This document shows, piece by piece, positions 3,581-25,284 of a stretch of 32,000 nt of DNA. This DNA is from Nostocales cyanobacterium LEGE 11386 (lineage in GTDB: Bacteria; Cyanobacteriota; Cyanobacteriia; Cyanobacteriales; Nostocaceae). The translations under genes were made by a program, and so were the position numbers. A model generated the notes under the pieces. It did no database searches. It saw only the letters and a program-made list of their open reading frames with translations, and was not told the origin of the DNA. The first letter of the stretch is position 1, and each line of letters starts with the position of its first letter. The stretch spans positions 10,527 to 42,526 of the forward strand of contig JADEXK010000054.1 in NCBI GenBank assembly GCA_015207155.1, in the 5' to 3' direction.

Positions 3581-3649
3581 GTCATTCCCAAAGTAACAAT
3601 TTTACTATTGCCAGTAGGTTGCAGGGTGGGAAACACCCACCCTCATACT

Positions 3650-3931
3650 TTAAACAGCCACTGTCTCAACTGCGGCAGCAACTGGATAAACACTAATTTT
3701 TTTGCGGGTTTTGCCTTTTCTCTCAAACGTCACTACACCATCAACCAAGGCAAACAAAGTGTCATCACTGCCGATGCCGACATTGTTACCAGGATGAAAC
3801 TTGGTGCCGCGCTGACGCACGAGAATGTTGCCCGCCAGCACAGCTTGACCACCATAGCGCTTAACACCCAGACGCTGGGCATTAGAGTCGCGACCGTTGC
3901 GTGTACTACCTGTTCCTTTCTTATGAGCCAT
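3650..3931 (-). CDS. rpmA: 50S ribosomal protein L27
   Basis: [29 protein letters not shown] is the canonical L27 N-terminus. Confidence 0.97.
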
Positions 3932-3960
3932 AATTTCCTCTTTTGTTTGTTCTCTTTAAA

Positions 3961-4359
3961 TTATTCAGCAGTCGCTTCTGCAAGGGAATTATCGGTGATG
4001 GGAGACTCAGCAGATAGAGATTCATCTGCTGCGAACACCGTACCATTGAGGGTGATGGAATTAATCATCAGTCTAGTAATTTCCTGGCGATGCCCCCGCT
4101 TTTTACGGGTTTTCTTTTTCGGCTTCATTTTATATACCAGGACTTTGCGACCTCTAAGATTCCTTAGCACTGTCCCTTCTACAGTCGCCCCTGCTACTAA
4201 AGGCTGTCCAATGGTGACTTCACCATCGTGCTGCACTAGTAATACTGTTTCTATTGTAACTTTTTCGTCCGCTTCGATATGCAGCAGTTCTATGTCGTAA
4301 AAGCGCCCTGGCTCAACTTTGAGTTGCTTGCCGCCAGTTTCAATAATTGCGTAGGTCAT
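3961..4359 (-). CDS. rplU: 50S ribosomal protein L21
   Basis: [24 protein letters not shown] is the canonical L21 N-terminus. The gene is upstream of rpmA, as in the conserved rplU-rpmA operon. Confidence 0.95.
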
Positions 4360-4941: not shown

Positions 4942-5137
4942 AAAATCTTATTGCTCTATTTTAGTCTGGTCACGCTACTACAATATTTTTTGCTAAAACA
5001 AGCAATATTTAAACATAAATTTGTATTTTGACTCACACTCAAACTTAACATTTAGCCTGCCGTTTGACGGAAGTTACTGTTAGCAGCAACTATTACCGTG
5101 CTGATTAGTAGTGTTCTTAGCTGAGACTAGTTTACTC

Positions 5138-5743
5138 ATGTTTAAATTTCTTAAACCAGTTGGTGATTACGCCAAACAAACTTTGCAAGCAGGTCGCTAT
5201 ATTGGACAAGGGCTATCGGTAACTTTCGATCATATGGGTCGTCGTCCCATTACTGTGCAATATCCATACGAAAAACTGATTCCCTCTGAACGCTTCCGAG
5301 GGAGAATTCACTTTGAATTTGATAAATGTATTTCTTGTGAAGTTTGCGTTCGAGTCTGCCCTATTAACCTCCCAGTAGTAGATTGGGAATTTAATAAAGA
5401 ATATAAAAAGAAAGAACTCAAGCATTACAGTATTGACTTTGGAGTTTGTATATTCTGTGGCAACTGTGTGGAATTTTGTCCAACAAACTGTCTGTCATTT
5501 ACTGAAGAATATGATCTTTCTGTTTATGACCGCCACGAATTGAATCATGACAACGTGGCGATGGGAAGACTACCTTACAAAGTTACCGAAGATGCAATGG
5601 TGACACCACTACGAGAATTAGTGTACTTACCTCAAGGAGTCTTAGATCCTCACGGAATTCCTGATGATGTTCGTCGAGTCGGTGTTTTACCATCGGAGAT
5701 TTTACAACAGGCTGTAGAAGATACCAATGATGCTAATCAGTAA
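5138..5743 (+). CDS. ndhI: NAD(P)H-quinone oxidoreductase subunit I (NuoI-type 2x[4Fe-4S] ferredoxin) in a non-canonical context
   Basis: [25 protein letters not shown]...[27 protein letters not shown], with both CxxCxxCxxxCP motifs ([24 protein letters not shown]). The start is taken at ATG 5138 rather than the track's GTG 5111. Confidence 0.9.
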
Positions 5744-5769
5744 TTGCTAGTAGCTAATTTTTATTGATC

Positions 5770-7494
5770 ATGACACAAGTACAAGTACAAGAAACTACTA
5801 ATATTGCTGCTCATGGTGAAGAATTGCCAGTAAGAAATTGGCGAGAATATTTTAGTTTTAGCACTGACCATAAAGTTATTGGCATTCAATACTTGGTCAC
5901 AAGTTTTGTGTTTTATCTATTTGGTGGTGCGTTGGCAACTTTAATTCGCAGTGAACTAGCAACACCAGAGTCAGACTTAGTTAGTCCTGAATTTTATAGC
6001 GGTTTATTTACCCTCCACGGAACTGTGATGATTTTTCTGTGGATTATCCCGGCTGGGACGGGGGGATTTGGTAACTTTTTAGTGCCGCTATTAATTGGGG
6101 CGCGTGATATGGCTTTCCCGCGATTGAATGCGATCGCCTTTTGGCTTGTCCCGCCGGCTGGCCTTTTGCTCCTAGCAAGTTTCTTTATAGATCCACCCCA
6201 GGCTGGTTGGACATCCTATCCACCGCTAAGTCTGATCATGAGTCAAGCCGGTGAAGCCATGTGGATTCTCAGCTTGATTTTACTGGGAACCTCCTCAATC
6301 ATGGCAGGGCTAAATTTTCTGGTGACGATTCTCAAAATGCGGACACCAGGGATGACGCTAAATCAAATGCCTCTATTTTGCTGGGCAATGTTAGGAACTT
6401 CTGGTTTAACACTGCTAGCAACCCCTGTACTCGCTGCGGCTTTGATTTTGCTAGCTTTTGACCTCTTGGCGGGTACAACATTCTACAACCCCACAGGCGG
6501 CGGAGACCCTGTAGTCTACCAACACATGTTCTGGTATTATTCACATCCGGCTGTGTATATCATGATTCTCCCAGTCCAAGGGATGATCTCAGAAATCTTG
6601 CCAGTTCACGCCCGCAAGCCAATTTTTGGTTATCTAGCCGTTGCTTATTCCAGTATTGCGATCGCCTGTTTATCTCTGATTGTCTGGGCGCACCATATGT
6701 TTACCACTGGTACACCTGGATGGGTGCGGATGTTTTTCATGATTACCACTATGGTTATTGCCGTACCCACAGGGATTAAAGTATTTAGCTGGTTAGGAAC
6801 TCTCTGGGGCGGCAAAATCCACTTTCGGACTGCCATGTTATTTGCCATGGGCTTGATTTCCGTGTTTGTCATTGGTGGGATTAGTGGCGTGATGACAGCT
6901 GCGGTTCCCTTCGACATTCACGTCCATGATACCTATTTCGTTGTGGCTCACCTGCACTACGTCTTGTTTGGCGGTAGTGTCTTTGGTTTGTATGCCGGCA
7001 TTTATCATTGGTTTCCCAAAATGACCGGGCGAATGTTAGATGAAACCTTAGGCAAAATTCACTTTGTCCTGACATATATCGGCTTCAATCTGGCATTTTT
7101 CCCCATGCATGAGTTGGGTATGCAAGGGATGAGAAGGCGAATTGCTGTGTATGATCCCAAATTTGCCGACCTCAATCTTATTTGTTCTATCGGTGCAGTC
7201 TTACTGGCAATTTCTACCCTACCTTTCCTGATTAATGTTTGCCATAGCTGGCTATACGGGAAAAAAGCACCTGATAACCCTTGGCAAGGTTTGACTTTTG
7301 AATGGATGACAACCTCACCACCACCACCAGAAAACTTTAAAACTCAACCAGTTTTAGCGGTACACCCTTACCATTACGGCGTGCGTGCATCTGAAGCTAA
7401 CGGCCGCTCAGATCAAGAAAATCCTCAACCTGATCTAGCTGCTGTGAGTCATGCCGATGACAACCAAAACTCTGAACAAGAATCATCTACATAG
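5770..7494 (+). CDS. ctaD: Haem-copper oxidase subunit I (A2-type, cyanobacterial CtaD-like), with no ctaC or ctaE nearby
   Basis: Twelve or more TM segments. Motifs include HGTVMIF, WTSYPPLS, FWYYSHPAVYIMILP (the YS motif replacing the D-channel Glu), WAHHMFTTG, VPTGIKVFSW and HDTYFVVAHLHYVLFGG. ATG at 5770; the track's TTG is at 5764. Confidence 0.9.
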   Translation: MTQVQVQETTNIAAHGEELPVRNWREYFSFSTDHKVIGIQYLVTSFVFYLFGGALATLIRSELATPESDLVSPEFYSGLFTLHGTVMIFLWIIPAGTGGFGNFLVPLLIGARDMAFPRLNAIAFWLVPPAGLLLLASFFIDPPQAGWTSYPPLSLIMSQAGEAMWILSLILLGTSSIMAGLNFLVTILKMRTPGMTLNQMPLFCWAMLGTSGLTLLATPVLAAALILLAFDLLAGTTFYNPTGGGDPVVYQHMFWYYSHPAVYIMILPVQGMISEILPVHARKPIFGYLAVAYSSIAIACLSLIVWAHHMFTTGTPGWVRMFFMITTMVIAVPTGIKVFSWLGTLWGGKIHFRTAMLFAMGLISVFVIGGISGVMTAAVPFDIHVHDTYFVVAHLHYVLFGGSVFGLYAGIYHWFPKMTGRMLDETLGKIHFVLTYIGFNLAFFPMHELGMQGMRRRIAVYDPKFADLNLICSIGAVLLAISTLPFLINVCHSWLYGKKAPDNPWQGLTFEWMTTSPPPPENFKTQPVLAVHPYHYGVRASEANGRSDQENPQPDLAAVSHADDNQNSEQESST

Positions 7495-7507
7495 GAATGT
7501 TAACAAG

Positions 7508-8122
7508 ATGAATTTAGCACATGAAAACTTGACTAAAAACTTGACTAACTTGATGGGAATTATTGGTGTTAGTACGGCGATCGCGGTTACTGGCTATTCA
7601 CAGATTAATCAAAAAGCGATCGCGCAAACGACACCCAATGTATCTACTATTTCGGGAACTAATATCTCACAAGCTAGGCTAAATGCCATTGACAGAGTTT
7701 ATGTGAACGAAGCAGCCCAAGCAGGAATGGCAGAAGTCGAAATGGCAAAGCTGGCACTAGAAAAATCAAACAACGATAACGTCAGACAGTATGCCCAGCA
7801 GATGATACAGGATCATACACCTGCGAACAAAGAATTAATGCAATTGGCGCAGCAGAAGGGAATTACTCCACCCACTGATGTCGGTTCTAAGTATCAAGCC
7901 ATAATAGCGCAACTATCACAATTATCTGGTGCAGATTTTGACCTAGCATACAGAAATGAAGCCGGCATGAACGGGCATATGGAAAACTTAGTCATCCACA
8001 CCCGTCAATTACAAATTGGTCAAGACCCAGACTTGCAAGCCTTTGCTGCCAAAAATATTCCCATTGTAGAGAGACACTTGCAATTGGTCGATGAATTATT
8101 AATGCAACCCACTCAGCAATAA
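7508..8122 (+). CDS. DUF4142-like (ferritin-like four-helix) protein with an N-terminal signal/anchor
   Basis: Hydrophobic N-terminus [17 protein letters not shown] followed by two helical half-repeats ([20 protein letters not shown]..., ...[18 protein letters not shown]). The family call is from memory. ATG 7508 lies 13 nt after the ctaD stop. Confidence 0.55.
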
Positions 8123-8133
8123 ATAGTTTAATT

Positions 8134-9318
8134 ATGGCCAGAATCGAAACCAGAACCGAACCCATGACCATCAACATGGGGCCGCATCATCCCTCGACGC
8201 ACGGTGTTTTGAGGTTGATTGTGACATTGGATGGAGAAGATGTTATTGACTGTGAACCGGTGATTGGCTACCTGCATCGGGGAATGGAAAAAATTGCCGA
8301 AAACCGTACCACCATTATGTATGTCCCTTACGTCAGCCGTTGGGACTATGCTGAGGGCATGTTTAATGAAGCTGTCACAGTCAACGCTGTGGAAAGGTTA
8401 GCTAATATCCCCATTCCCAAACGCGCTAGCTACATCCGCGTCATCATGCTAGAGCTGAATCGAATTGCTAACCACCTGCTGTGGTTTGGGCCATTTGCCG
8501 CAGATTTAGGCGTGCAAACTCCCTTTTTCTATATATTCCGAGAACGGGAAATGATTTATGACTTGTGGGAAGCAGCTTCAGGCTACCGCATGGTTAATAA
8601 TAACTACTTCCGCGTTGGCGGCATTGCAGTTGATTTACCTTACGGTTGGGTAACTAAGTGCCAAGAGTTTTGTGATTACTTTCCGGGCAAAATAGATGAA
8701 TATGAACGGCTAGTCACCGATAACCCTATTTTTCGCCGTCGGGTTGAAGGCGTGGGTTTCATTGACCGAGATGAGGCGATTAACTGGGGTCTTTCCGGCC
8801 CGATGCTGCGTGGTTCGGGAGTGAATTGGGACTTGCGAAAAGTTGACCACTACGAGTGCTACGACGATTTTGATTGGGAAGTTTGTTGGGAAACTGGTGG
8901 TGATATCTTAGCGCGTTACTTTGTGCGGATGCGGGAAATGCGAGAATCAGTGAAGATTCTGCATCAAGTACTCAAAGGGTTACCTGGCGGCCCTTACGAA
9001 AATTTAGAAGCCAAACGCATGGCGTCCGGACGTAAATCAGAATGGGACGCATTTGATTATCAGTATATTGGCAAGAAGGTTTCCCCTACCCTCAAGATTC
9101 CCAAAGGAGAAATCTATGCCCGTGTCGAAAGTGGTAAGGGTGAGTTAGGCATTTATCTAATTGGAGACGATAACGTTTTTCCTTGGCGCTGGAAAATCCG
9201 TCCGGCTGATTTTGATAATTTGCAGATTTTACCCCACCTGCTGAAAGGGGTAAAAGTTGCCGATATCATAGCAATTTTAGGTAGCATTGATATCATTATG
9301 GGTTCAGTTGACCGTTAG
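8134..9318 (+). CDS. ndhH: NAD(P)H-quinone oxidoreductase subunit H (NuoD-type)
   Basis: [37 protein letters not shown]...[14 protein letters not shown] is near-collinear with cyanobacterial NdhH. Confidence 0.92.
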
Positions 9319-9336
9319 AAATTGGGAGTTGGCTAT

Positions 9337-10053
9337 TTACTCAATTTCTACTCTCTTTCTGGCAGTTTGCAGTGCAGGAGGAATCGGTGTTCCCATTGCT
9401 TCTGCTAATTCTGGAGGTGGTTGTTGTAGAGAAGGCAATCTCAAATATTTACCTGTGAGAATTTGAGGCCCCACCTTCATATTATGGGTGGTACTGTAGA
9501 AGCGATGAGTTTGCTTAAATTTATCTCGTTCTTGAATTGATTCATCAGCTATTTTTTTGCGAAGTTTGATGATGGCATCAATGATCGCTTCTGGACGGGG
9601 AGGGCAACCAGGTATATAAACATCTATGGGTAAAAGTTTATCAGCACCTCGCACAGCAGTCGGAGAATCCATGCTGAACATACCTCCAGTAATCATACAA
9701 GCTCCCATGGCTATTACATACTTTGGTTCAGGCATTTGCTCATAAAGCCGCATCGTTGGTTGAGACATTTTCACATTCAAAGTTCCTGCCAAAATAATTA
9801 AATCAGCTTGACGTGGGCTAGCACGAGGAAGTAGACCAAATCTGTCAAAATCAAATCGTGAGCCAATTAAGGCAGCAAATTCAATAAAGCAGCAAGCAGT
9901 TCCATACAACAGTGGATATAAACTGGAGAGTCTAGCCCAGTTATAGAGGTCATCTAATGTTGTTAAGATGACATTTTCTGATAGCTGGTTAGTTACTTTG
10001 TAACCAATCGGAGCAATTATGCTTTCTTTGTCAAATGAATTATTAGAACTCAT
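9337..10053 (-). CDS. ndhK: NAD(P)H-quinone oxidoreductase subunit K (NuoB-type, N2 [4Fe-4S])
   Basis: [58 protein letters not shown] and [12 protein letters not shown] at 10053 is preferred over the track's TTG at 10065. Confidence 0.9.
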
Positions 10054-10401
10054 GCTTTTATCCAAAAAGAGAATTTTAAGCTAATTTTCTCAAAATATCT
10101 TGTTGATAATCTAAGATTAAAAGTTTGTGGCATTTAATCACTTCCACCAAAAGGAATATGTGTTAACTAATTTAGTTTCAAGAAACCATTCTGTAGGGAA
10201 AAAACAGGAAGAGATTCTCAACCAAGAGTATGAGCTTTGTACCAGAAATTTTTGAAATCAGTTATTAAAATGTGTTTTTTATAACTTATAGATTTAATAT
10301 AAAACCATTCTTTGAGAGGAGGGTTTTTTATCGTTAAAAGATAAAAAATTAATTATGAAAAAATAATGCTTGTTGGCATTTAACGTATTTTATTTAAACT
10401 A

Positions 10402-11148
10402 ATGGAAAGAAATAATTTAAATTACTATGATTTGAATGCAGATAATTGGTGGATCGAAGGTGAAGTTTTAAATTTATCTAATCATCTTAATAAATCTAGA
10501 ATTGAATTTTTTTCAAGTTACATCCCGACATGGCAAGGAGTGGAAGTTTTAGATATTGGTTGTGGAGGTGGATTAGCATGTGAACTTTTAGCCAAGCAAG
10601 GGGCTAATATATCTGGTATTGACCTATCTTTAAATTCGATTAAAGTCGCTCAAGAACATGCTAAAAAGAGCAATTTAAAAATTGATTACTATCAAGGAAT
10701 TGCCGAAAATATGCCTTTTGAGACAAACAAATTTGATATTGTCTTGTGTTGTGATGTTTTGGAGCATGTCACAGACTGGAAACAAGTGATTTCAGAAGCT
10801 TATAGAGTTTTAACAACAAATGGTTTATTTTTCTTCGATACAATCAACAAAACTTTTAAATCCAAACTGATCATGATTTGGCTTTTAGAAGATATTTTAC
10901 AGCAGATACCACGAGGATTTCACGACTGGAATAAGTTCATTAAAGTCCAAGATTTAATATATATTCTGGAAGATACTGGCTTTAAGGATGTCAGAATAAA
11001 AGGATTTGATTTAACAGGCGGTACAAACTTTAAAACATTGACAAAGATGATTTTGAAAGGTCTAAGCAACAAGAATCAAGAATTATTTGAAATTAAAATA
11101 AATGAGGATAGTTCGGTATGGTATATTGGCAAAACGGTGAAGCTTTAG
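10402..11148 (+). CDS. Class I SAM-dependent methyltransferase, UbiG/Methyltransf_11-like
   Basis: Motif I VLDIGCGGG, plus post-I and motif II/III spacing (DIVLCCDVLEHV). The gene and its flanks are visibly AT-rich. Confidence 0.7.
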   Translation: MERNNLNYYDLNADNWWIEGEVLNLSNHLNKSRIEFFSSYIPTWQGVEVLDIGCGGGLACELLAKQGANISGIDLSLNSIKVAQEHAKKSNLKIDYYQGIAENMPFETNKFDIVLCCDVLEHVTDWKQVISEAYRVLTTNGLFFFDTINKTFKSKLIMIWLLEDILQQIPRGFHDWNKFIKVQDLIYILEDTGFKDVRIKGFDLTGGTNFKTLTKMILKGLSNKNQELFEIKINEDSSVWYIGKTVKL

Positions 11149-11384
11149 TGCCCAAATCACATATACAGCAAATTTCAAATAAGTAGGGTATACAAGGGCG
11201 GGCAAGATGCCCATCCCACAATAGAGTTTACCGACAAAACAGGTACAGCAGCAGATGGCATCAGGATTTGGTAATGAGTCCGATGATAGATGAAGATGCG
11301 ATCGCCTCAGCTTAATTATGTGGAAAAGATTGGTGATTTTCTGAGTAGCGCCATAGGATCTAACTTCATCATAGAGACATCATC

Positions 11385-12830
11385 ATGGAATTTTTATCTG
11401 ATACCGTTGTACTGTCGCGGATGCAGTTTGCGCTGACAGCTTCTATTCATATGCTTTGGCCTACACTGACAACAGGTGTGGGGATTTATTTAGTCATTAT
11501 TGAAGGACTATGGTTAAAAACCCGCAATCCCCAATATTACTATCATGCTCGTTTTTGGGCTAAACTCTATGCCCTCAACTTCGGTGTGGGTGTAGCAACG
11601 GGCATTCCTATGGAATTTCAGTTTGGCACTAACTGGGCAGCTTTTTCGGAAGCTGTTGGTAACTTTTTTGGCAGTGTTATTGGGTTTGAGGCATCTTGGG
11701 CATTTATGCTAGAAGCCGCGTTTCTGGGGATTATGTTATTTGGTTGGGAGCGTGTTAATCCGGCAATTCACTATCTCTCCACGATTCTGGTGGCAATTGG
11801 TGCTAACTTATCCACGGTTTGGATTTTATCGGCGAGTTCCTGGATGCAATCACCAGCAGGCGGAGAAATGGTAAATGGTAAGTTTGTCGTTCATGATTAT
11901 TTTCAGGCGATCGTCAACCCATTTATGGTGAAAAGTGTTCTCCATATGTTTATGGCAACGCTGGAAACATCATTATTTGTGATAGGTGGAATTAGTGCTT
12001 GGTATATTCTCAAACATCGTCATCCTGATTTCTTTGCTAAGTCTTTCAAGATTGCGCTGGCGGCGGTAATCGCGATCGCTCCCTTACAAATTTATATCGG
12101 ACATTTGAATGCTGAACAAGTTTACCATTATCAACCAGAAAAACTAGCAGCAATGGAAGCCCAATGGAATACAATTCCCGGTGGACAGCCTGCCAATTGG
12201 AGCCTTTTGGCATTACCGAACAACAAAGCCGAGAAAAACGACTGGGAATTGGTCATCCCCAATGCACTGGGATATATTTTGGAATTTAAAGAAAAGTTAT
12301 CTGAGCCGGTACTGGGTTTGAAGGAATGGAAACCGGAGGATCGTCCCCGCCTTGTGGGTTTAATTTACTATTCTTTCCGCATAATGGTTGGTATTGGTTT
12401 TTTATTAGCCGGATTAATGTTTGGCAGCATTATTTATTGGTTACTAGGCAAGCTTTCTCAAGATAATATTACTCAGCAGCATTGGTTGATGCGTGCTTGG
12501 ATGTTTGCAGCTCCATTAGGATTTATTGCGATCGATACAGGTTGGATTGTGCGTTGCGTTGGGCGACAGCCGTGGACACTCTATCGCCAAATTCGCACTG
12601 TAGATTCTGTCTCTCATCTTCCCCCTAGTAATGTTCTTGTATCCCTCACGGGTTTTACAATCAGTTACATGTTGTTACTAGTGGCATACATTTATTTTGG
12701 TAGTCGCATTATTCGTAGAGGGCCAAATTTCGATTTGCCTGTACCTGGCATTGAAGTTGCTAGACCAGCAATTGAAACGACTCCTGGAGAGTTTGTTCCC
12801 AATGAGCGTCCCACAGAAGCGCAACAGTAG
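11385..12830 (+). CDS. cydA: Cytochrome bd-type quinol oxidase subunit I
   Basis: LSRMQFALTASIHMLWP, GIPMEFQFGTNW, GFEASWAFMLEA and GRQPWTLY align with CydA hallmarks, including the haem-ligand His positions. No cydB ORF follows. Confidence 0.88.
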   Translation: MEFLSDTVVLSRMQFALTASIHMLWPTLTTGVGIYLVIIEGLWLKTRNPQYYYHARFWAKLYALNFGVGVATGIPMEFQFGTNWAAFSEAVGNFFGSVIGFEASWAFMLEAAFLGIMLFGWERVNPAIHYLSTILVAIGANLSTVWILSASSWMQSPAGGEMVNGKFVVHDYFQAIVNPFMVKSVLHMFMATLETSLFVIGGISAWYILKHRHPDFFAKSFKIALAAVIAIAPLQIYIGHLNAEQVYHYQPEKLAAMEAQWNTIPGGQPANWSLLALPNNKAEKNDWELVIPNALGYILEFKEKLSEPVLGLKEWKPEDRPRLVGLIYYSFRIMVGIGFLLAGLMFGSIIYWLLGKLSQDNITQQHWLMRAWMFAAPLGFIAIDTGWIVRCVGRQPWTLYRQIRTVDSVSHLPPSNVLVSLTGFTISYMLLLVAYIYFGSRIIRRGPNFDLPVPGIEVARPAIETTPGEFVPNERPTEAQQ

Positions 12831-13389: not shown

Positions 13390-13463
13390 CGGGGCGTAGC
13401 GCAGCTTGGTAGCGCGCCACTTTGGGGTAGTGGAGGTCGTGGGTTCGAATCCCGCCGCTCCGA
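13390..13463 (+). tRNA. tRNA-Pro, anticodon GGG
   Basis: Cloverleaf folded by hand. The 7-bp acceptor is CGGGGCG/CGCTCCG (one G-U pair). The D arm is GCGC..GCGC. The anticodon stem is CCACT/AGTGG with loop TTGGGGT. The T arm is GTGGG-TTCGAAT-CCCGC, the discriminator is A, and no CCA is encoded. Confidence 0.9.
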
Positions 13464-17587: not shown

Positions 17588-17950
17588 TTAGATAGGCAAT
17601 TGTCTCACACGAAAGGTTTCATTACTGACAGAAATAATTGCACCTATTTCTAAATCTTCCTGGCATTCTCTCAAAACTTCTGTCAACCGTTTATTAATCG
17701 CATTGTAATTTTGATTACCCAACCTAAACAAAATAACGCTAGGTAAACTATCTCCACTAACAGCTAATAGTTGAGCAAAGTCTAAATCTACAGTTAATAA
17801 AATTCTATCTTCTATACGGGCTTTAATTAAAATTTGATTATCTGGTAATTTTTGCAATCCTTGATCACGTAAATGAACTACATCATAACCATCACTACGC
17901 AACCAAGATAAAGTTCGTAATGAAATTCCCATATCTGCCAAAAACTTCAT
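17588..17950 (-). CDS. DUF5615-family PIN-like putative toxin
   Basis: MKFLADMGISLRTLSWLRSDGYDVVHLRD...LLTVDLDF follows a DUF433 gene, which is a known pairing. The alternative TTG start at 17962 forms a TTGA overlap with the upstream stop. Confidence 0.6.
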   Translation of the reverse strand: MKFLADMGISLRTLSWLRSDGYDVVHLRDQGLQKLPDNQILIKARIEDRILLTVDLDFAQLLAVSGDSLPSVILFRLGNQNYNAINKRLTEVLRECQEDLEIGAIISVSNETFRVRQLPI

Positions 17951-17958
17951 GTTACTTA

Positions 17959-18189
17959 TCAAGCAATTTTAAAGGGATAAACCCGTTCTTGAGTCAACCA
18001 CGCTGCATAAAGTAAAGATTGACGAATATCTTCTTGTTCTAAATCAGGATATTCTTCTAAAATTTCCTCTACAGGTTTTCCGTTAGCGACTAAATTCACC
18101 ACTAAAGAAACCGGAATTCGCATTCCCCGAATGCAAGCTTGTCCTCCCATAATGCCAGGATCAAACGTAATATTATCTAGACCCAACAT
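17959..18189 (-). CDS. DUF433-family putative antitoxin
   Basis: DPGIMGGQACIRGMRIPVSLVVNLVANG...ILEEYPDLEQEDIRQSLLYAAW matches the DUF433 signature. Confidence 0.7.
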   Translation of the reverse strand: MLGLDNITFDPGIMGGQACIRGMRIPVSLVVNLVANGKPVEEILEEYPDLEQEDIRQSLLYAAWLTQERVYPFKIA

Positions 18190-18393: not shown

Positions 18394-18440
18394 ACTCTCT
18401 GCGCCTTTGCGCCTTTGCGTGAGATACATTCATCAAATTT
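18394..18440 (+). repeat. Dispersed CTCTGCG-type repeat copy, with the detached second half at 18275-18300
   Basis: actctctgcgcctttgcgcctttgcgtgagatacattcatcaaattt. Confidence 0.75.
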
Positions 18441-18481
18441 TTGTTACGATAAATCTAATGTTGAGCATTGTGAGAAGGGCT

Positions 18482-18712
18482 ATGCGGTCAATTGAGCAAC
18501 TGACAGAAGAAATATTGTCCTTGCCTAGTGCATCGAGAGCTATTCTTGCAGAAAAACTGGTAGAAAGCTTAGAATTCGACACTGATTCAGTAATTCAGTC
18601 AGTTTGGGTAACAGAAGCTAAAAGAAGAAGAGACGAAGTTCAACATGGTTCTGTACAACTGATTCCAGGAGAAGAAGCCCTAGCTCAAGTTAGACAACTG
18701 ATCGAGCCATGA
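18482..18712 (+). CDS. Putative addiction-module antitoxin component (TIGR02574-like)
   Basis: MRSIEQLTEEILSLPSASRAILAEKLVESLE...W.TEAKRRRDEV. Its stop overlaps the ATG of the downstream toxin frame (ATGA at 18709-18712). ATG 18482 is preferred over the track start inside a repeat. Confidence 0.65.
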   Translation: MRSIEQLTEEILSLPSASRAILAEKLVESLEFDTDSVIQSVWVTEAKRRRDEVQHGSVQLIPGEEALAQVRQLIEP

Positions 18713-19721: not shown

Positions 19722-22241
19722 TTGCAGGAAAATAACCAATTAGCCATTGCAGCTATTTTGGGAATGGGTGGACTGGGTAAAACAGAACTCGCCTTGCAAT
19801 ATGCCATGACTCAGCGCGAAAACTACAAAGGTGGACTGTGCTGGTTACAGGCGAAAGCTGAGGATTTTGGCGTTCAAGTGGTGCGGTTTGCCAGAACTCA
19901 GCTTGATTTAAAGCCACCAGAAGAATTTGATTTACCTGAACAAGTACAATACTGCTGGCGGAATTGGCGTGAGGGTAATGTGCTGCTGGTGGTGGATGAT
20001 GTTACAGATTACCAGCAAATCAGACCTTACCTACAGGGCGCATCTTCCAGATTTAAAGTATTGATGACTACGCGCCAAAAGTTGGGTGCAGCCATTAAGC
20101 AATTATCTTTAGATGTATTACAACCAGATGCAGCGTTAGATTTGTTACGGTCTTTGCTGACAGAAACACCAAAGCGAATTGAGCAAGAATTAGAAGTAGC
20201 AAATCAGTTGTGTGAATGGCTAGGATATTTACCATTGGGTTTAGAGTTGGTGGGGCGATATCTGGCGCGAAAACCGGATTTATCCTTATCAGCAATGATG
20301 CAGCGCTTGGAGAAAAAGCGATTAGAACAACCTGCACTTGTCAAGCCAGAAGCCGATATGACAGCACAAAGGGGAGTGCAAGCCGCTTTTGAGTTGAGTT
20401 GGCAAGAATTAGCAGAGGATGACAGGTTACTAGGTTGTATTCTCAGTTTATTTGCAGCCGCACCTATACCTTGGAACTTAGTAGAAAAGTGTTTACCGGA
20501 GAAAGATGAAGATGAGTTAGAGGAAATTCGAGACGATAAGTTAATGAATCTGCATTTACTCCAGCGTAAAGGTAAGGGAATTTATCAACTACATCCACTG
20601 CTGCGGGAGTTTTTTCAATATAAGCTTACAGGTTTAGAGCAAGCGGAGGAATTTAGGCGATCGTTTTGCGGTGTAATGGTAGAGGTTGCCAAAAAAATTC
20701 CTCGTACTCTTACACTTGAGAAAATTAACGCTGTTTTCCTTGTCATATCTCACATAGCTCAAGTAGCAAGACATCTCATTCCACACGTCATTGATGAAGA
20801 CTTAATTTGGCCTTTCATCGCCTTGGGCAAATTTTATGAAGGACAAGGTTTGTATACCTTAGCCGAACCTTGGCGTCAGCAGTGTTTATCAACAGCAAAA
20901 GACCGCTTGGGAGACAATCATCCCGATGTCGCCACTAGCCTCAACAATCTGGCAGTAATCTACTATTTACAAGGATGCTACGACTCAGCTGAATCTTTAT
21001 ACATTCAAGATTTAGAACTGAGTAAACATCTGCTAGGAGAAAATCATCCTAATGTAGCTACTAGCCTCAACAACCTGGCAGTACTTTACTATTCACAAGG
21101 ACGCTACAACCAAGCTAAACCCCTGTTTCTCCAAGCTTTAGAACTGAGTAAACAGTTGATGGGAGACAATCATCCTGATGTTGCCCAAAGCCTCAACAAC
21201 TTGGCAAATCTCTACAAATCCCAAGGATGTTACGAGCAAGCCGAACCCCTGTTTCTTCAAGCTTTAGAATTAAGAAAACGCCTGCTGGGAAACAATCATC
21301 CCGATGTTGCCCAAAGCCTCAATAACTTGGCAGAACTCTACAAATCCCAAGGAAGGTATAACCAAGCCGAATCCCTGTATCTCCAAGCTTTAGAACTGTA
21401 TAAACAGCTGCTGGGAGACAATCATCCTGATGTTGCCACTAGCCTCAACAATCTAGCAGCACTTTACTATTTACAAAGACGATACAACCAAGCCGAATCC
21501 CTGTATCTCCAAGCTTTAGAATTAAGAAAACGCCTGCTGGGAGACAATCATCCTGATGTTGCCACTAGCCTCAACAATCTAGCAGCACTTTACTATTTAC
21601 AAAGACGATACAACCAAGCCGAATCCCTGTATCTCCAAGCTTTAGAATTAAGAAAACGCCTGCTGGGAGATAATCATCCTGATGTTGCCACTAGCCTCAA
21701 CGACATGGCAGCACTTTACTCTGACCAAGGAAGGTACAACCAAGCCGAATCCCTATATCTCCAAACTTTAGAACTAAGAAAACGCCTGCTGGGAGATAAT
21801 CATCCTAATGTTGCTCAAAGCCTTAACAACCTGGCATATCTCTACAATTCCCAAGGAAGGTACGACCAAGCCGAATCCCTGTATCTCCAAGCTTTAGAAA
21901 TAATAAAATGCTTGTTGGGAGATAATCATCCTGATGTTGCCAACACCCTCAATAATCTAGCAGCACTTTACTCTGACCAAGGACGATACGACCAAGCCGA
22001 ACCCCTCTATCTCCAAGCTTTAGAACTCAGACAACGCCTGCTGGGAGAAAATCATCCCGATGTCGCCACTAGCCTCAACAACTTGGCTGGACTCTACTCT
22101 GGCCAAGGAAAGTATGAGCAAGCCGAACCCCTTTATCTCCAAGCTTTAAATATTTGTGAACATAGCTTAGGGTTAGGTCATCCTTCAACAATAATAATTC
22201 GGAGCAACTATGCAAGTTGTTTGAAACGGACATATATTTGA
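19722..22241 (+). CDS. NB-ARC (STAND) NTPase with a C-terminal TPR array, NLR-like
   Basis: Walker A GMGGLGKTELA, Walker B LLVVDDV, MTTRQ, and the GLPLA-like LGYLPLGLELV, followed by about 10.5 TPR units. Homology (KFVGRENELQNL) continues upstream in frame to the TGA at 19596 with no ATG, GTG or TTG in between. The TTG at 19722 is only the first formal start. Confidence 0.8.
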   Translation: MQENNQLAIAAILGMGGLGKTELALQYAMTQRENYKGGLCWLQAKAEDFGVQVVRFARTQLDLKPPEEFDLPEQVQYCWRNWREGNVLLVVDDVTDYQQIRPYLQGASSRFKVLMTTRQKLGAAIKQLSLDVLQPDAALDLLRSLLTETPKRIEQELEVANQLCEWLGYLPLGLELVGRYLARKPDLSLSAMMQRLEKKRLEQPALVKPEADMTAQRGVQAAFELSWQELAEDDRLLGCILSLFAAAPIPWNLVEKCLPEKDEDELEEIRDDKLMNLHLLQRKGKGIYQLHPLLREFFQYKLTGLEQAEEFRRSFCGVMVEVAKKIPRTLTLEKINAVFLVISHIAQVARHLIPHVIDEDLIWPFIALGKFYEGQGLYTLAEPWRQQCLSTAKDRLGDNHPDVATSLNNLAVIYYLQGCYDSAESLYIQDLELSKHLLGENHPNVATSLNNLAVLYYSQGRYNQAKPLFLQALELSKQLMGDNHPDVAQSLNNLANLYKSQGCYEQAEPLFLQALELRKRLLGNNHPDVAQSLNNLAELYKSQGRYNQAESLYLQALELYKQLLGDNHPDVATSLNNLAALYYLQRRYNQAESLYLQALELRKRLLGDNHPDVATSLNNLAALYYLQRRYNQAESLYLQALELRKRLLGDNHPDVATSLNDMAALYSDQGRYNQAESLYLQTLELRKRLLGDNHPNVAQSLNNLAYLYNSQGRYDQAESLYLQALEIIKCLLGDNHPDVANTLNNLAALYSDQGRYDQAEPLYLQALELRQRLLGENHPDVATSLNNLAGLYSGQGKYEQAEPLYLQALNICEHSLGLGHPSTIIIRSNYASCLKRTYI
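20907..22241 (+). repeat. Coding tandem array of about 10.5 units of 126 bp (42-aa TPR units, LGDNHPDVATSLNNLA..Y..QGRY.QAE.LYLQALEL)
   Basis: Read from the protein and DNA. Units 5 and 6 are identical at the nucleotide level (21408-21533 equals 21534-21659). Confidence 0.9.
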
Positions 22242-24224: not shown

Positions 24225-25235
24225 TCAATTAGCAGGAATTTGCCAAATCTTGGCAGTTTCATCAGAACTACCACTAGCTAGAGTTTGTCCATCAGGACTA
24301 AAAGCTACAGACCAAACAGCCTTGTTATGACCCTTGAGATTATCAATTAACTGTCCTGTCTGTGTATTCCATAACTTAATTGTTTGGTCATAACTACCGC
24401 TAGCTAGAGTCTTTCCATTAGGGCTGAAAGCTAGAGAATAAATTGCTCTATTATGCCCTTGCATCACACAGTGTAACTGCCCATCTTTTAAATTCCATAA
24501 CTTAATTATACGGTCAGAACCACCACTAGCTAGAGTCTGTCCATCGGGACTGAAGGCTATAGACCAAATCGGTTGGTCATGAGCTGCTAAAGGTGTTCTT
24601 AATCTACCAGTGCTTATTTGCCAAAGCATGATTTTACCACCTTCATCGCCACTAGCTAAAGTCTGTCCATCGGGGCTAATAGCTACTGTTCTCACTGGTT
24701 GTGATTGACTAAAAGTTTGTAATAGTTCACCAGTCTCTACATTCCATAAATTCACCTTTTTGTCCCAGCCAGCACTAGCAATAGTTTTACCGTCAGGGCT
24801 AAACGTGACTGCTTTAACATCATTGGTATGTCCAGATAAAGTGCGGATTAGTTCACCTGTTTTCAAATTCCATAATTTAACCTGGAAATCCCAACTACCA
24901 CTAGCTAAAGTTTGACCATCGGGGCTAATTGCAACGGATGCTACAGAGTTTCCATGTCCCCGGAGTGTGTGAATCAACTTACCAGTATTAAGATTCCAAA
25001 CCTTGATACTTTTATCATAATTTCCCGTAATAAGTTTTTGACCATCGGGACTAATTGCGACTGAATAAACCCACACAGACTGAGTATTAAAAGTGCGTGT
25101 TTGTTCATCATTTACAAGTAATTTATTTGTGGAGTTACCTAAAACTAAAGAGATACTGCTTAGTCCGAGAAGCGTGGAAAATATAACACCTACTAAGCCA
25201 GTTTTTGTTTTTCTGTTAATTAGGTTGAGTTTCAT
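24225..25235 (-). CDS. Seven-bladed WD40 repeat protein with an N-terminal signal/anchor
   Basis: Seven units of the form [VI]xSVAISPDGQTLASGSxDxxIKLWN, with hydrophobic N-terminus GLVGVIFSTLLGLSSISLVLG. ATG 25235 is preferred over TTG 25262. Confidence 0.85.
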   Translation of the reverse strand: MKLNLINRKTKTGLVGVIFSTLLGLSSISLVLGNSTNKLLVNDEQTRTFNTQSVWVYSVAISPDGQKLITGNYDKSIKVWNLNTGKLIHTLRGHGNSVASVAISPDGQTLASGSWDFQVKLWNLKTGELIRTLSGHTNDVKAVTFSPDGKTIASAGWDKKVNLWNVETGELLQTFSQSQPVRTVAISPDGQTLASGDEGGKIMLWQISTGRLRTPLAAHDQPIWSIAFSPDGQTLASGGSDRIIKLWNLKDGQLHCVMQGHNRAIYSLAFSPNGKTLASGSYDQTIKLWNTQTGQLIDNLKGHNKAVWSVAFSPDGQTLASGSSDETAKIWQIPAN

Positions 25236-25284
25236 ACTAATTGAATAACTAATTAATGGCAAGTAATAGAACTAAATATGGTAA

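Follow-up and report, generated by a model that had tools for sequence, protein, structure and literature searches.

The forms NDH-1L, L', MS and MS' of cyanobacterial NDH-1 are a known case in which one complex is diversified by paralogues (NdhD, NdhF and Cup) encoded at separate loci. Known variation affects only the distal membrane and CO2-uptake module, and the NdhH, NdhI, NdhJ and NdhK core has been treated as a single set in reviews of the complex. A second NdhK encoded outside ndhC-K-J occurs in Synechocystis sp. PCC 6803 (NdhK2, slr8031 on pSYSG; PMC7058544), unaccompanied by copies of ndhI or ndhH. Among terminal oxidases a precedent is provided by Pseudomonas aeruginosa, where ccoN3Q3 and ccoN4Q4 place a subunit I gene away from a complete oxidase operon and the orphan catalytic subunit CcoN4 hybridises with subunits from the full operon, giving condition-specific isoforms (PMC5697931, PMC10790758). 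The locus described here lies in a window of 32,000 nucleotides from Nostocales cyanobacterium LEGE 11386 and differs from these systems in that it duplicates the FeS/quinone-site core of NDH-1 and, embedded among the NDH-1 paralogues, carries an oxidase subunit I (CtaD') that is of the A2-type aa3 rather than the cbb3 class. The pairing of an isoform with full-operon partners, demonstrated in Pseudomonas, is proposed for CtaD' by analogy. The locus is probably an accessory cassette of co-regulated isoforms, in which NdhI2, NdhK2, NdhH2 and CtaD' would swap into otherwise standard NDH-1 and Cox complexes.

Four genes on the forward strand are separated by gaps of 26, 13 and 11 nt. The first gene of the unit is ndhI2 (5138-5743), whose product is a paralogue of NDH-1 subunit I bearing two [4Fe-4S] motifs (TIGR00403, 335 bits against a cut-off of 302), followed by ctaD' (5770-7494), a stand-alone Cox1-type (A2) haem-copper oxidase subunit I (TIGR02891, 710 bits, cut-off 671), a gene for a DUF4142 protein (7508-8122; PF13628, 134 bits) and ndhH2 (8134-9318), a paralogue of the quinone-site subunit H (NF005649, 816 bits, cut-off 583). 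On the reverse strand an ndhK2-type gene (9337-10053; NuoB subfamily NF005012, 232 bits), a paralogue of subunit K with cluster N2, converges on ndhH2 with its stop at 9337 and 18 nt between the two stop codons. Its annotated product (P0241) is 238 aa long from an ATG at 10053, and the mechanical open reading frame extends to a TTG at 10065. No convincing intrinsic terminator was found between the four tightly packed genes, and we infer that they are co-transcribed. None of ndhA, ndhG, ndhE, ctaC, ctaE and cydB was detected in the 32 kb by tblastn or by Pfam searches of ORFs of at least 100 aa, and ctaA and ctaB were likewise not found near ctaD'. The initial annotation had described this spacing, the convergent ndhK and the lack of the ndh and cta partner genes, and had claimed intact redox ligands in NdhI, NdhK and CtaD; the ORF coordinates, the searches and inspection of motifs and residues agree with it on each point.

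All cassette genes are under purifying selection, with dN/dS of 0.04-0.28 overall and of 0.04-0.12 in the redox subunits (ndhI2 0.05-0.12, ctaD' 0.09-0.12, ndhH2 0.04-0.08, ndhK2 0.04-0.11, at dS up to ~2) and 0.14-0.28 in the DUF4142 gene. The reading frames are intact as well.

Phylogenies against housekeeping copies, a check suggested in the initial annotation, placed NdhI, NdhH and NdhK outside the housekeeping clades as diverged paralogues at the level of sequence, the trees being NJ only with moderate bootstrap support (62-85%). NdhI2, in which both 12-residue cluster motifs are present, is encoded outside the ndhA-I-G-E context that is canonical in 64 of 80 GTDB ndhI loci and belongs to a clade of 14 Nostocales paralogues (NJ bootstrap 62%) with the signature residues L2F and M121F. 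The NdhH2 clade (NJ bootstrap 67%) is marked by A74E, present in 20 of 20 paralogues where 99 of 101 housekeeping NdhH have Ala, by M122A and V125L, and by N361V. In sequence these signatures bracket the quinone-site triad His23/Tyr72/Asp124, with A74E two residues past quinone-binding Tyr72 and M122A and V125L flanking Asp124. Identity of NdhH2 to the housekeeping cluster P0136 (1,663 members including Nostoc PCC 7524, N. piscinale and Chroococcidiopsis) is only 85%. NdhK2 retains the cluster N2 motifs (one of 17 residues, and PGCPPRPE) and is separate from a housekeeping clade that includes T. elongatus (bootstrap 85%); T86L, I90L, L98T, T118M and V135A are fixed in it (80 of 80 paralogues, 0 of 14 housekeeping proteins). 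T118M adjoins an N2 cysteine in sequence, and since the housekeeping form of this motif is GACTITGG, the GACMITGG quoted in the initial annotation is a paralogue signature that was not recognised there.

Residues 1-394 of NdhH2 are colinear with T. elongatus NdhH (6HUM_H) and NdhK2 aligns with 6HUM_K including the cyanobacteria-specific C-terminal extension, and these full-length alignments to NDH-1L subunits indicate proteins shaped to fit NDH-1. The NdhK2 of Synechocystis is 68% identical to the cassette protein over residues 23-209 but lacks the C-terminal extension and matches the housekeeping form at each of the five signature positions (T, I, L, GACTITAG, V), and is therefore a distinct, independent paralogue.

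CtaD' has the expected ligands (His83, SHPAVY at 258, AHHMF at 307 and AHLHY at 393) and keeps the D-channel Asp and K-channel Lys. The Tyr of YSHPAVY had been listed in the initial annotation among the intact ligands; this motif is normal in all 120 cyanobacterial CtaD matches (A2-type oxidase) and so is not special to ctaD'. The housekeeping ctaC-ctaD-ctaE (Cox1) operon with divergent ctaA/ctaB encodes a CtaD of the same type at 68-75% identity with the same motif and ligands, whereas CtaD' has no ctaC, ctaE, ctaA or ctaB nearby and is set apart by seven substitutions specific to its clade (F270Q, W492H and G141D among them), none of them at a ligand. Its identity to the ctaD homologues carried on plasmids, of which one is annotated as ctaDII, is only 53-56%. 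The nearest relatives beyond the clade (at most 75% identity) are located in ctaC-D-E, as are all further relatives examined, a context that fits 79 of 80 metagenome ctaD loci. The ctaD' clade itself is small (80-100% identity) and was seen only directly 3' of ndhI2, in seven lineages and in all members with context read (P0005, at 80%, left out).

The DUF4142 protein has an N-terminal hydrophobic signal or anchor and repeated helices that contain His, and is predicted to be a four-helix bundle of the DUF305/CopM type. Sequence similarity to these periplasmic copper-binding bundles is marginal (DUF305, 21 bits against a Pfam cut-off of 27; CopM, E = 6e-4) and the family is DUF4142 rather than DUF305, but they are the best fold match of the AlphaFold model (domain pLDDT ~80-90), for which the top Foldseek matches were DUF305 structures 3BT5 and 2QF9, Rv2844 and CopM 5FFC (target TM 0.70-0.77, E ~3e-3). 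On this model the protein is probably metal-binding, a putative function, and placed on the P side of the membrane.

Immediately upstream of ndhI2 is a conserved element of ~115 nt (5022-5137, forward strand), a promoter or 5' leader identified by alignment and an nhmmer profile, which includes an NtcA/CRP-like box (TGTA-N8-CACA) at 5022-5037. The profile was built from 16 loci and run on ~180 loci, where it gave one match per locus immediately 5' of ndhI2 in 21 Nostocales loci (E 5e-26 to 6e-12), no other match and no significant match in any canonical locus. The element was also absent from the canonical ndhA-ndhI spacer of locus L060, the one spacer read directly, and no RNA structure was supported within it.

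The arrangement is not unique to this strain. Synteny in other Nostocales, also raised in the initial annotation, was seen as an identical five-gene order with other flanks in Nodularia sp. LEGE 04288 and as subsets of the cassette at ~20 other loci, mainly Nostocales, in Cyanocohniella, Cylindrospermum NIES-4074, Umezakia, Nostoc desertorum, Calothrix, GCA_000331305.1, Gloeocapsa PCC 7428 and metagenome contigs; ndhI was the search probe and is hence present in every Nostocales locus compared. Loci with common upstream genes hold five, four, two or one of the cassette genes, and the DUF4142 gene accompanies ndhI2 in loci without ctaD too (L006, L017, L020, L042). In Trichormus ATA11-4-KO1, which is 95% identical over the flanks, the region corresponding to 7628-11132 is deleted, removing ndhH2, ndhK2 and most of the DUF4142 gene, of which a 41-codon stub is left, so these ndhH2 and ndhK2 copies are dispensable. 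The pattern is best explained by a cassette that is old in Nostocales and is being lost piecemeal in separate lineages.

The Trichormus deletion also took a UbiG-like SAM-dependent methyltransferase gene (10402-11148, forward strand; TIGR01983, 173 bits, cut-off 103), a variable companion of the cassette that adjoins it in Umezakia/Chrysosporum (L003-L005, L007), a metagenome contig (L099) and Leptolyngbya FACHB-321 (L048) and has a GC content of 31.5% against 41% for the window. Beyond it is a stand-alone cydA (11385-12830, forward strand; cytochrome bd subunit I, PF01654, 505 bits), given as context only, which is followed by a DUF1818 gene, with no CydB-sized ORF in the window. This arrangement is kept in Trichormus ATA11-4-KO1 (98% amino acid identity, dN/dS 0.10), and cydA may be a further isoform gene.

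The initial annotation had offered two readings, isoforms that swap into NDH-1 and are co-regulated with an extra oxidase subunit, perhaps for heterocyst or akinete respiration, and a chimeric module in which an FeS Q-module feeds an O2-reducing subunit directly. In the second reading a soluble FeS/quinone module of NdhI, NdhK and NdhH would pass electrons straight to the orphan CtaD and, needing neither NDH-1 nor Cox, would act as a ferredoxin- or quinol-to-O2 oxidoreductase. The tight and exclusive ndhI2-ctaD adjacency in seven lineages and the single apparent operon with gaps of 11-26 nt are compatible with such an enzyme, but ctaD is absent from most loci with Ndh paralogues (for example L011, L022, L091, L089 and L095), and ndhI2-ctaD is kept without ndhH or ndhK in Umezakia and Trichormus. 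The paralogues align end to end with NDH-1L subunits, NdhK extension included, CtaD' differs from the ctaCDE-encoded protein at only seven clade-specific positions, and a membrane adaptor, for instance NdhA, is not encoded at the locus. In established structures NdhI is cytoplasmic, whereas haem a of subunit I receives its electrons via CuA of subunit II, from the opposite (P) side. The chimeric enzyme is thus unsupported, topologically implausible and scarcely credible. The idea that the duplicates are without function or in decay, for instance as a hitch-hiking leftover from horizontally transferred DNA, would account for the patchy distribution with many partial versions, the outright deletion in a close relative and the AT-rich adjoining methyltransferase. 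It is nevertheless highly improbable given that every reading frame is intact, dN/dS of the redox subunits stays low at high dS, the ligands are all conserved, signature residues are fixed over 20-80 sequences and the regulatory element is conserved.

Intact, strongly selected genes scoring above equivalog cut-offs would also be expected if this were a rearranged housekeeping locus, holding the sole ndhI, ndhH and ndhK (and ctaD) of the organism moved from their usual operons. On indirect evidence this is very unlikely, because within their own order the proteins group separately from the housekeeping clades and show fixed differences, ndhH and ndhK are deleted from the locus in the 95%-identical relative, the same-position Nostocales loci L013 and L030 hold only ndhI2, which would leave their hosts without NdhH or NdhK, and ctaD without ctaC and ctaE could not supply a sole oxidase. 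It is unlikely too that two unrelated isoform systems, an Ndh set and a ctaD'/DUF4142(/methyltransferase) set serving different conditions, are chance neighbours. Some loci do have ndhI2-ndhH2-ndhK2 without ctaD and others ndhI2-ctaD-DUF4142-methyltransferase without ndhH or ndhK, and GC3 is heterogeneous (0.29 in ndhI2 and ndhK2, 0.43-0.48 in ctaD' and ndhH2), yet the orphan CtaD clade was never seen away from ndhI2 in its seven lineages with differing flanks, ctaD is lodged between ndhI2 and ndhH2 with a gap of 26 nt on one side and of 13 and 11 nt on the other, and the sole conserved upstream element detected is 5' of ndhI2.

The isoform reading of the initial annotation therefore stands in its essentials, in that clades, signatures, synteny, selection and the deletion in a relative identify paralogous isoforms, and as an interpretation overall it stands in part, the swapping of subunits into NDH-1 and Cox being the step that we infer. 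As an accessory isoform cassette, the locus would hold extra copies, with housekeeping ndh and cta genes presumably elsewhere in the LEGE 11386 genome. The conserved promoter or leader before ndhI2 would drive expression, and under some inducing condition the products would replace their housekeeping counterparts, NdhI2, NdhK2 and NdhH2 entering NDH-1 and CtaD' pairing with the CtaC and CtaE that a complete cox operon supplies. On this view ctaD would be tied to the ndh genes by regulation, through one transcription unit, and not by physical association. Electrons in cyanobacterial NDH-1 travel entirely through NdhI, NdhK and NdhH, from N6a/N6b through N2 to the plastoquinone pocket, and replacing these subunits would retune the cofactor or quinone-site properties of the resulting complexes.

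The gene layout reported in the initial annotation was reproduced by an ORF scan, with four plus-strand genes separated by gaps of 26, 13 and 11 nt and an ndhK-like gene converging on them with the two stop codons 18 nt apart. The plus-strand genes were ndhI2 (5138-5743; TIGR00403, 335 bits with a cut-off of 302), the oxidase gene ctaD' (5770-7494; TIGR02891, 710 bits, cut-off 671), a DUF4142 gene (7508-8122; PF13628, 134 bits, cut-off 27) and ndhH2 (8134-9318; NF005649, 816 bits, cut-off 583), while the ndhK2-type gene, assigned to NdhK/NuoB by family search, occupies the minus strand from the end of the cassette at 10053 to a stop at 9337. The redox ligands that had been listed for NdhI, NdhK and CtaD were all found, and the earlier observation that ndhA, ndhG, ndhE, ctaC and ctaE are missing held across the 32-kb window, where none was detected. 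By tblastn, ndhI2 was outside an ndhA-ndhI-ndhG-ndhE context in the window, as were the paralogue loci elsewhere. GC3 was uneven within the cassette (5138-10053), being 0.29 for ndhI and ndhK, 0.43 for ctaD and 0.48 for ndhH, which suggests that the genes were put together from sources differing in age or origin.

Upstream of the cassette rpmA and rplU are located on the opposite strand (3650-4359, minus), and a 230-aa mechanical ORF antisense to both (3608-4300, plus) is almost certainly spurious. On the other side a UbiG-like methyltransferase gene (10402-11148, plus; TIGR01983, 173 bits, cut-off 103) precedes a stand-alone cydA encoding cytochrome bd subunit I (11385-12830, plus; PF01654, 505 bits), and no cydB was present in the 32-kb window. 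The cydA gene is the third example at this locus of a catalytic subunit without partners. A tRNA gene (13390-13463, plus; Rfam RF00005, 61.7 bits) lies between the DUF1818 and alpha/beta hydrolase genes. The more distant genes encoding a DUF5615/Mut7-C-like protein (17588-17962, minus), an addiction-module antitoxin-like protein (18407-18712, plus), an NB-ARC/TPR protein (19722-22241, plus) and a WD40 protein (24225-25262, minus) are ordinary variable Nostocales chromosome content and bear no relation to the cassette.

The cassette NdhI, NdhH and NdhK proteins were each placed apart from the housekeeping groups in NJ trees with moderate bootstrap support (62%, 67% and 85%, respectively). Non-canonical Nostocales NdhI proteins formed their own group, the 62% value applying to a 14-sequence core, distinct from the NdhI that Nostoc and its relatives encode in ndhAIGE. 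NdhI has two CxxCxxCxxxCP [4Fe-4S] motifs, starting at residues 64 and 104, and the paralogue signatures are L2F and M121F. The NdhH clade grouped all cassette loci with 13 database proteins. The window NdhH is 85% identical to the representative of the housekeeping cluster (P0136; 1,663 members including Nostoc PCC 7524, N. piscinale and Chroococcidiopsis) and forms a separate cluster at 90% identity. Glu74 (A74E) was found in the window protein and in all 20 paralogues, whereas 99 of 101 housekeeping sequences have Ala; at position 361 the window protein has Asp and 18 of the 20 clade members have Val, but 101 of 101 housekeeping sequences have Asn. M122A and V125L are further NdhH signatures. 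Using an ungapped offset of +15 to T. thermophilus Nqo4 (2FUG_4 match), His23, Tyr72 and Asp124, which were invariant in 20 of 20 NdhH paralogues, correspond to Nqo4 His38, Tyr87 and Asp139, the established quinone-site triad. Because the offset puts the triad at these residues, A74E, M122A and V125L flank it. One NJ tree placed NdhH2 as sister to the Nostocales housekeeping gene, as a recent duplication would, but this grouping had only 4% bootstrap and is not claimed here.

Housekeeping NdhK proteins, with the T. elongatus protein of 6HUM as anchor, formed a clade separate from the cassette type with the 85% support. Five substitutions (T86L, I90L, L98T, T118M and V135A in T. elongatus numbering) were each present in 80 of 80 paralogues and in none of 14 housekeeping proteins, and the window protein differs from housekeeping at all five. 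T118M changes the housekeeping GACTITGG to GACMITGG and adjoins an N2 cysteine, while the four N2 ligands (CC at 58-59, C123 and C154) are kept in three motifs. From their positions in the sequence, we infer that the signature residues would lie close to the cofactors in three dimensions. NdhK aligned to residues 8-225 of 6HUM_K including the cyanobacterial C-terminal extension, and both NdhH and NdhK were colinear end to end with NDH-1L structure subunits and are thus built to fit into NDH-1. Organisms listed among the members of ten housekeeping clusters did not overlap with the paralogue carriers.

A set of approximately 100 loci was assembled from exact look-ups of the closest CtaD relatives and an NdhI scan of GTDB species genomes and was classified by tblastn. 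The best 80 NdhI loci from GTDB comprised 64 with canonical ndhA-I-G-E and 16 non-canonical loci. The five-gene arrangement is conserved as a mosaic, and the identical order, ndhI-ctaD-DUF4142-ndhH with ndhK on the minus strand, occurred in Nodularia sp. LEGE 04288 between flanking genes different from those of the window. Shorter versions included ndhI-ctaD-ndhH with ndhK in Cyanocohniella, ndhI-ctaD-ndhH in Cylindrospermum NIES-4074, ndhI-ctaD-DUF4142-methyltransferase in Umezakia/Chrysosporum and metagenome contig L099, and ndhI-ndhH with ndhK in Nostoc desertorum, Calothrix FI2-JRJ7 and assembly GCA_000331305.1. Four genomes had ndhI-DUF4142 and five had a non-canonical ndhI alone. Loci with common upstream genes held 5, 4, 2 or 1 cassette genes, as would be expected if genes had been lost (or gained) piecemeal at a single ancestral site.

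The cassette-type NdhK family is large (approximately 80 of 94 sampled matches) and reaches beyond heterocystous cyanobacteria, often as an ndhK-ndhI pair as in Gloeocapsa PCC 7428 (CP003646; L089 6001-7412) and Leptolyngbya FACHB-321 (L048). In L078, a locus from a MAG labelled Actinomycetota, ndhK comes after ndhI, and metagenome contig L095 has all three ndh paralogues inside 6 kb. Because this NdhK type is widespread and often paired with ndhI, the I/K paralogue pair may predate the Nostocales cassette. At comparison locus L097 (5001-6344) a cassette-type ndhK stands alone and is followed immediately by a convergent gene of the vitamin K epoxide reductase family (VKOR), also a quinone-dependent protein.

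CtaD' has the features of an aa3-type subunit I of the A2 subtype, including the six His ligands, the cross-linked Tyr, the YSHPxV motif, the D-channel Asp and the K-channel Lys, and is encoded outside an oxidase operon with no adjacent ctaC (subunit II) or ctaE (subunit III) in the window. Its clade is small (80-100% identity) and was directly downstream of a paralogous ndhI in all seven lineages in which the context was read, the 80%-identical relative P0005 standing outside these seven. The next relatives are at most 75% identical and are located in ctaC-D-E with divergent ctaA/ctaB. Metagenome relatives had the full ctaC-D-E in 66 of 80 cases and truncated or extended versions consistent with it in 13 more (79/80). 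YSHPAVY was common to all 120 cyanobacterial CtaD matches, and the seven substitutions specific to the CtaD' clade (e.g. F270Q and W492H) included none at ligand or channel residues. A plasmid-borne cassette was considered and rejected, as tblastn searches of PLSDB with NdhH, NdhI, NdhK and CtaD returned no close plasmid copies. The only plasmid matches were a Kovacikia ndhI (77%), NdhK paralogues of Synechocystis and Acaryochloris that are unrelated to the cassette type (66-68%) and ctaD homologues, one annotated ctaDII, with 53-56% identity to CtaD'. As far as these data show the cassette is not plasmid-borne, and given its low identity to the plasmid ctaD homologues CtaD' is a Cox1-type subunit.

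An element of approximately 115 nt directly upstream of the paralogous ndhI (5022-5137, plus) was shared by 21 Nostocales loci irrespective of which gene precedes it, and a profile search found it nowhere else in the loci compared, canonical loci included. It starts with a TGTA-N8-CACA box (5022-5037) resembling NtcA or CRP-family sites and contains an ATTAA-N8-TTAAT inverted repeat. The box is kept as TGTA-N8-NACA in most loci and is perfect in L007 (Umezakia/Chrysosporum) and comparison locus L091. Class II NtcA promoters have a GTAN8TAC box approximately 22 nt upstream of a TAN3T -10 box, whereas the spacing to the candidate -10 hexamers was 9 or 16 nt. With this element in front of it, ndhI2 would be the first gene of a unit under its own control. 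Consensus promoter and terminator scans performed at chance level, and the tRNA was the only Rfam family in the window, with none in the leader. A riboswitch or attenuator in the ndhI2 leader was rejected, since RNAalifold returned 0 pairs and two hand-drawn hairpins had no more covariation than shuffled sequences (73% paired compared with 73% after shuffling, with 1 compensatory pair). Descent of the leader from the ndhA-ndhI spacer was likewise rejected, the canonical spacer being unrelated and the profile having no canonical-locus match.

The DUF4142 protein has an N-terminal hydrophobic segment, and a single-sequence AlphaFold model gave pLDDT values of approximately 80-90 for the domain. 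The best fold matches of the model were DUF305 proteins, Rv2844 and the copper-binding CopM (target TM 0.70-0.77, with weak E values of approximately 3e-3), in agreement with HMM scores that fell short of the family cut-offs for DUF305 (21 bits, cut-off 27) and CopM (19.8 bits, cut-off 90); resemblance was found at the fold level only. The protein could plausibly handle metals on the P side. The UbiG-like methyltransferase gene lies beside the cassette in three lineages, being found also at L007 13298-14059, L048 11963-12712 and L099 (approximately 4758), and is AT-rich, with a GC content of 31.5% in the window and 32.5% in Umezakia compared with approximately 41% in the surroundings. Plastoquinone carries no O-methyl groups. 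A YflT-like general-stress protein gene (PF11181, weak) occurred near ndh paralogues in five loci of unrelated context, for example L007 9194-9790, L091 6055-6615, L095 7526-8080 and L006 13683-14240, and at L091 a hemerythrin-domain gene was alongside it. The recurrence of this gene may hint at stress regulation.

Relative to their homologues, NdhI, CtaD, NdhH, NdhK and CydA had dN/dS values of 0.04-0.12, with dS up to approximately 2, and values for DUF4142 and the methyltransferase were 0.14-0.28. Trichormus sp. ATA11-4-KO1 (L001) is colinear with the window on both sides of the cassette at 95% nucleotide identity and retains the orphan cydA, with DUF1818 as the next gene, at 98% amino acid identity (dN/dS 0.10). 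This strain is without the 3.5 kb corresponding to window 7628-11132 (compared with L001 11858-13159), which holds most of the DUF4142 gene (its 3' part), ndhH, ndhK and the methyltransferase gene; a 41-codon DUF4142 stub is kept (L001 11739-11864) and a TPR gene stands in place of the lost segment. Short cydA-derived and junction repeats in the window (11133-11195 and 11532-11591) match sequence at the junction in L001. NDH-1 requires NdhH and NdhK, so with the copies at this locus deleted the Trichormus strain must presumably encode both elsewhere. The deletion is the strongest argument for the accessory status of the cassette copies.

The best-supported interpretation is that the cassette encodes an accessory set of isoform subunits that would take the place of the housekeeping versions within standard NDH-1 and Cox complexes. 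Isoform paralogues were one of two options put forward in the initial annotation and are favored by the separate protein groups, the fixed signatures, the dN/dS values in the purifying range and the mosaic synteny. The second option, a chimeric enzyme in which an Ndh FeS module feeds CtaD' directly, fails on distribution, since most paralogue loci are without ctaD and some ctaD' loci are without ndhH and ndhK, and on the architecture of the paralogues, which fits NDH-1. Membrane topology also opposes it, as NdhI is on the cytoplasmic side while haem a receives electrons from the P side via CuA. If the cassette genes were instead the organism's only copies this would be a rearranged housekeeping locus, but that reading is contradicted by the phylogeny, the signature residues and the Trichormus deletion, and the case for paralogue status of the Ndh proteins is indirect but consistent. 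We consider improbable a more elaborate alternative, a condition-specific chain in which the whole electron wire and quinone pocket of NDH-1 are exchanged (NdhI2/NdhK2/NdhH2, with changes beside N2 and Tyr72) and paired with a Cox subunit I of their own, here also with the orphan CydA and the UbiG-like O-methyltransferase, and which would be tuned against an inhibitor or oxidant or for a modified quinone.

The NdhH/I/J/K core carrying the FeS clusters and quinone site of cyanobacterial and chloroplast NDH-1 is regarded as invariant and single-copy, and the known isoform diversity of NDH-1 is in the distal NdhD/NdhF/Cup module. A literature search returned no account of paralogous ndhI or ndhH, of the cassette NdhK family or of ndhI-ctaD linkage, and searches on ndh paralogues in heterocystous strains and on DUF4142 gave nothing relevant except Synechocystis NdhK2. 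That plasmid-encoded protein (pSYSG NuoB; PMC7058544) is a different paralogue, 68% identical, in which every signature position carries the housekeeping residue and the C-terminal extension is missing. As a set of accessory isoform subunits, the cassette would have parallels in the NdhD/NdhF isoforms and in P. aeruginosa, with its orphan CcoN subunits (PMC5697931, PMC10790758). What the locus suggests is a second version, recurrent and under selection, of precisely those three subunits through which electrons pass from ferredoxin to plastoquinone. Each has paralogue substitutions fixed beside cluster N2 or the Tyr/Asp residues that bind quinone, and in a subset of Nostocales this second Ndh set is joined to a stand-alone Cox subunit I. 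The paralogues are natural variants for studies of N2 and Q-site tuning, and their signature peptides can be distinguished by mass spectrometry, making subunit swapping directly testable. If the subunits do swap in, cyanobacteria could use a single promoter to adjust the redox properties of the complexes at both ends, entry and exit, of respiration and cyclic electron flow.
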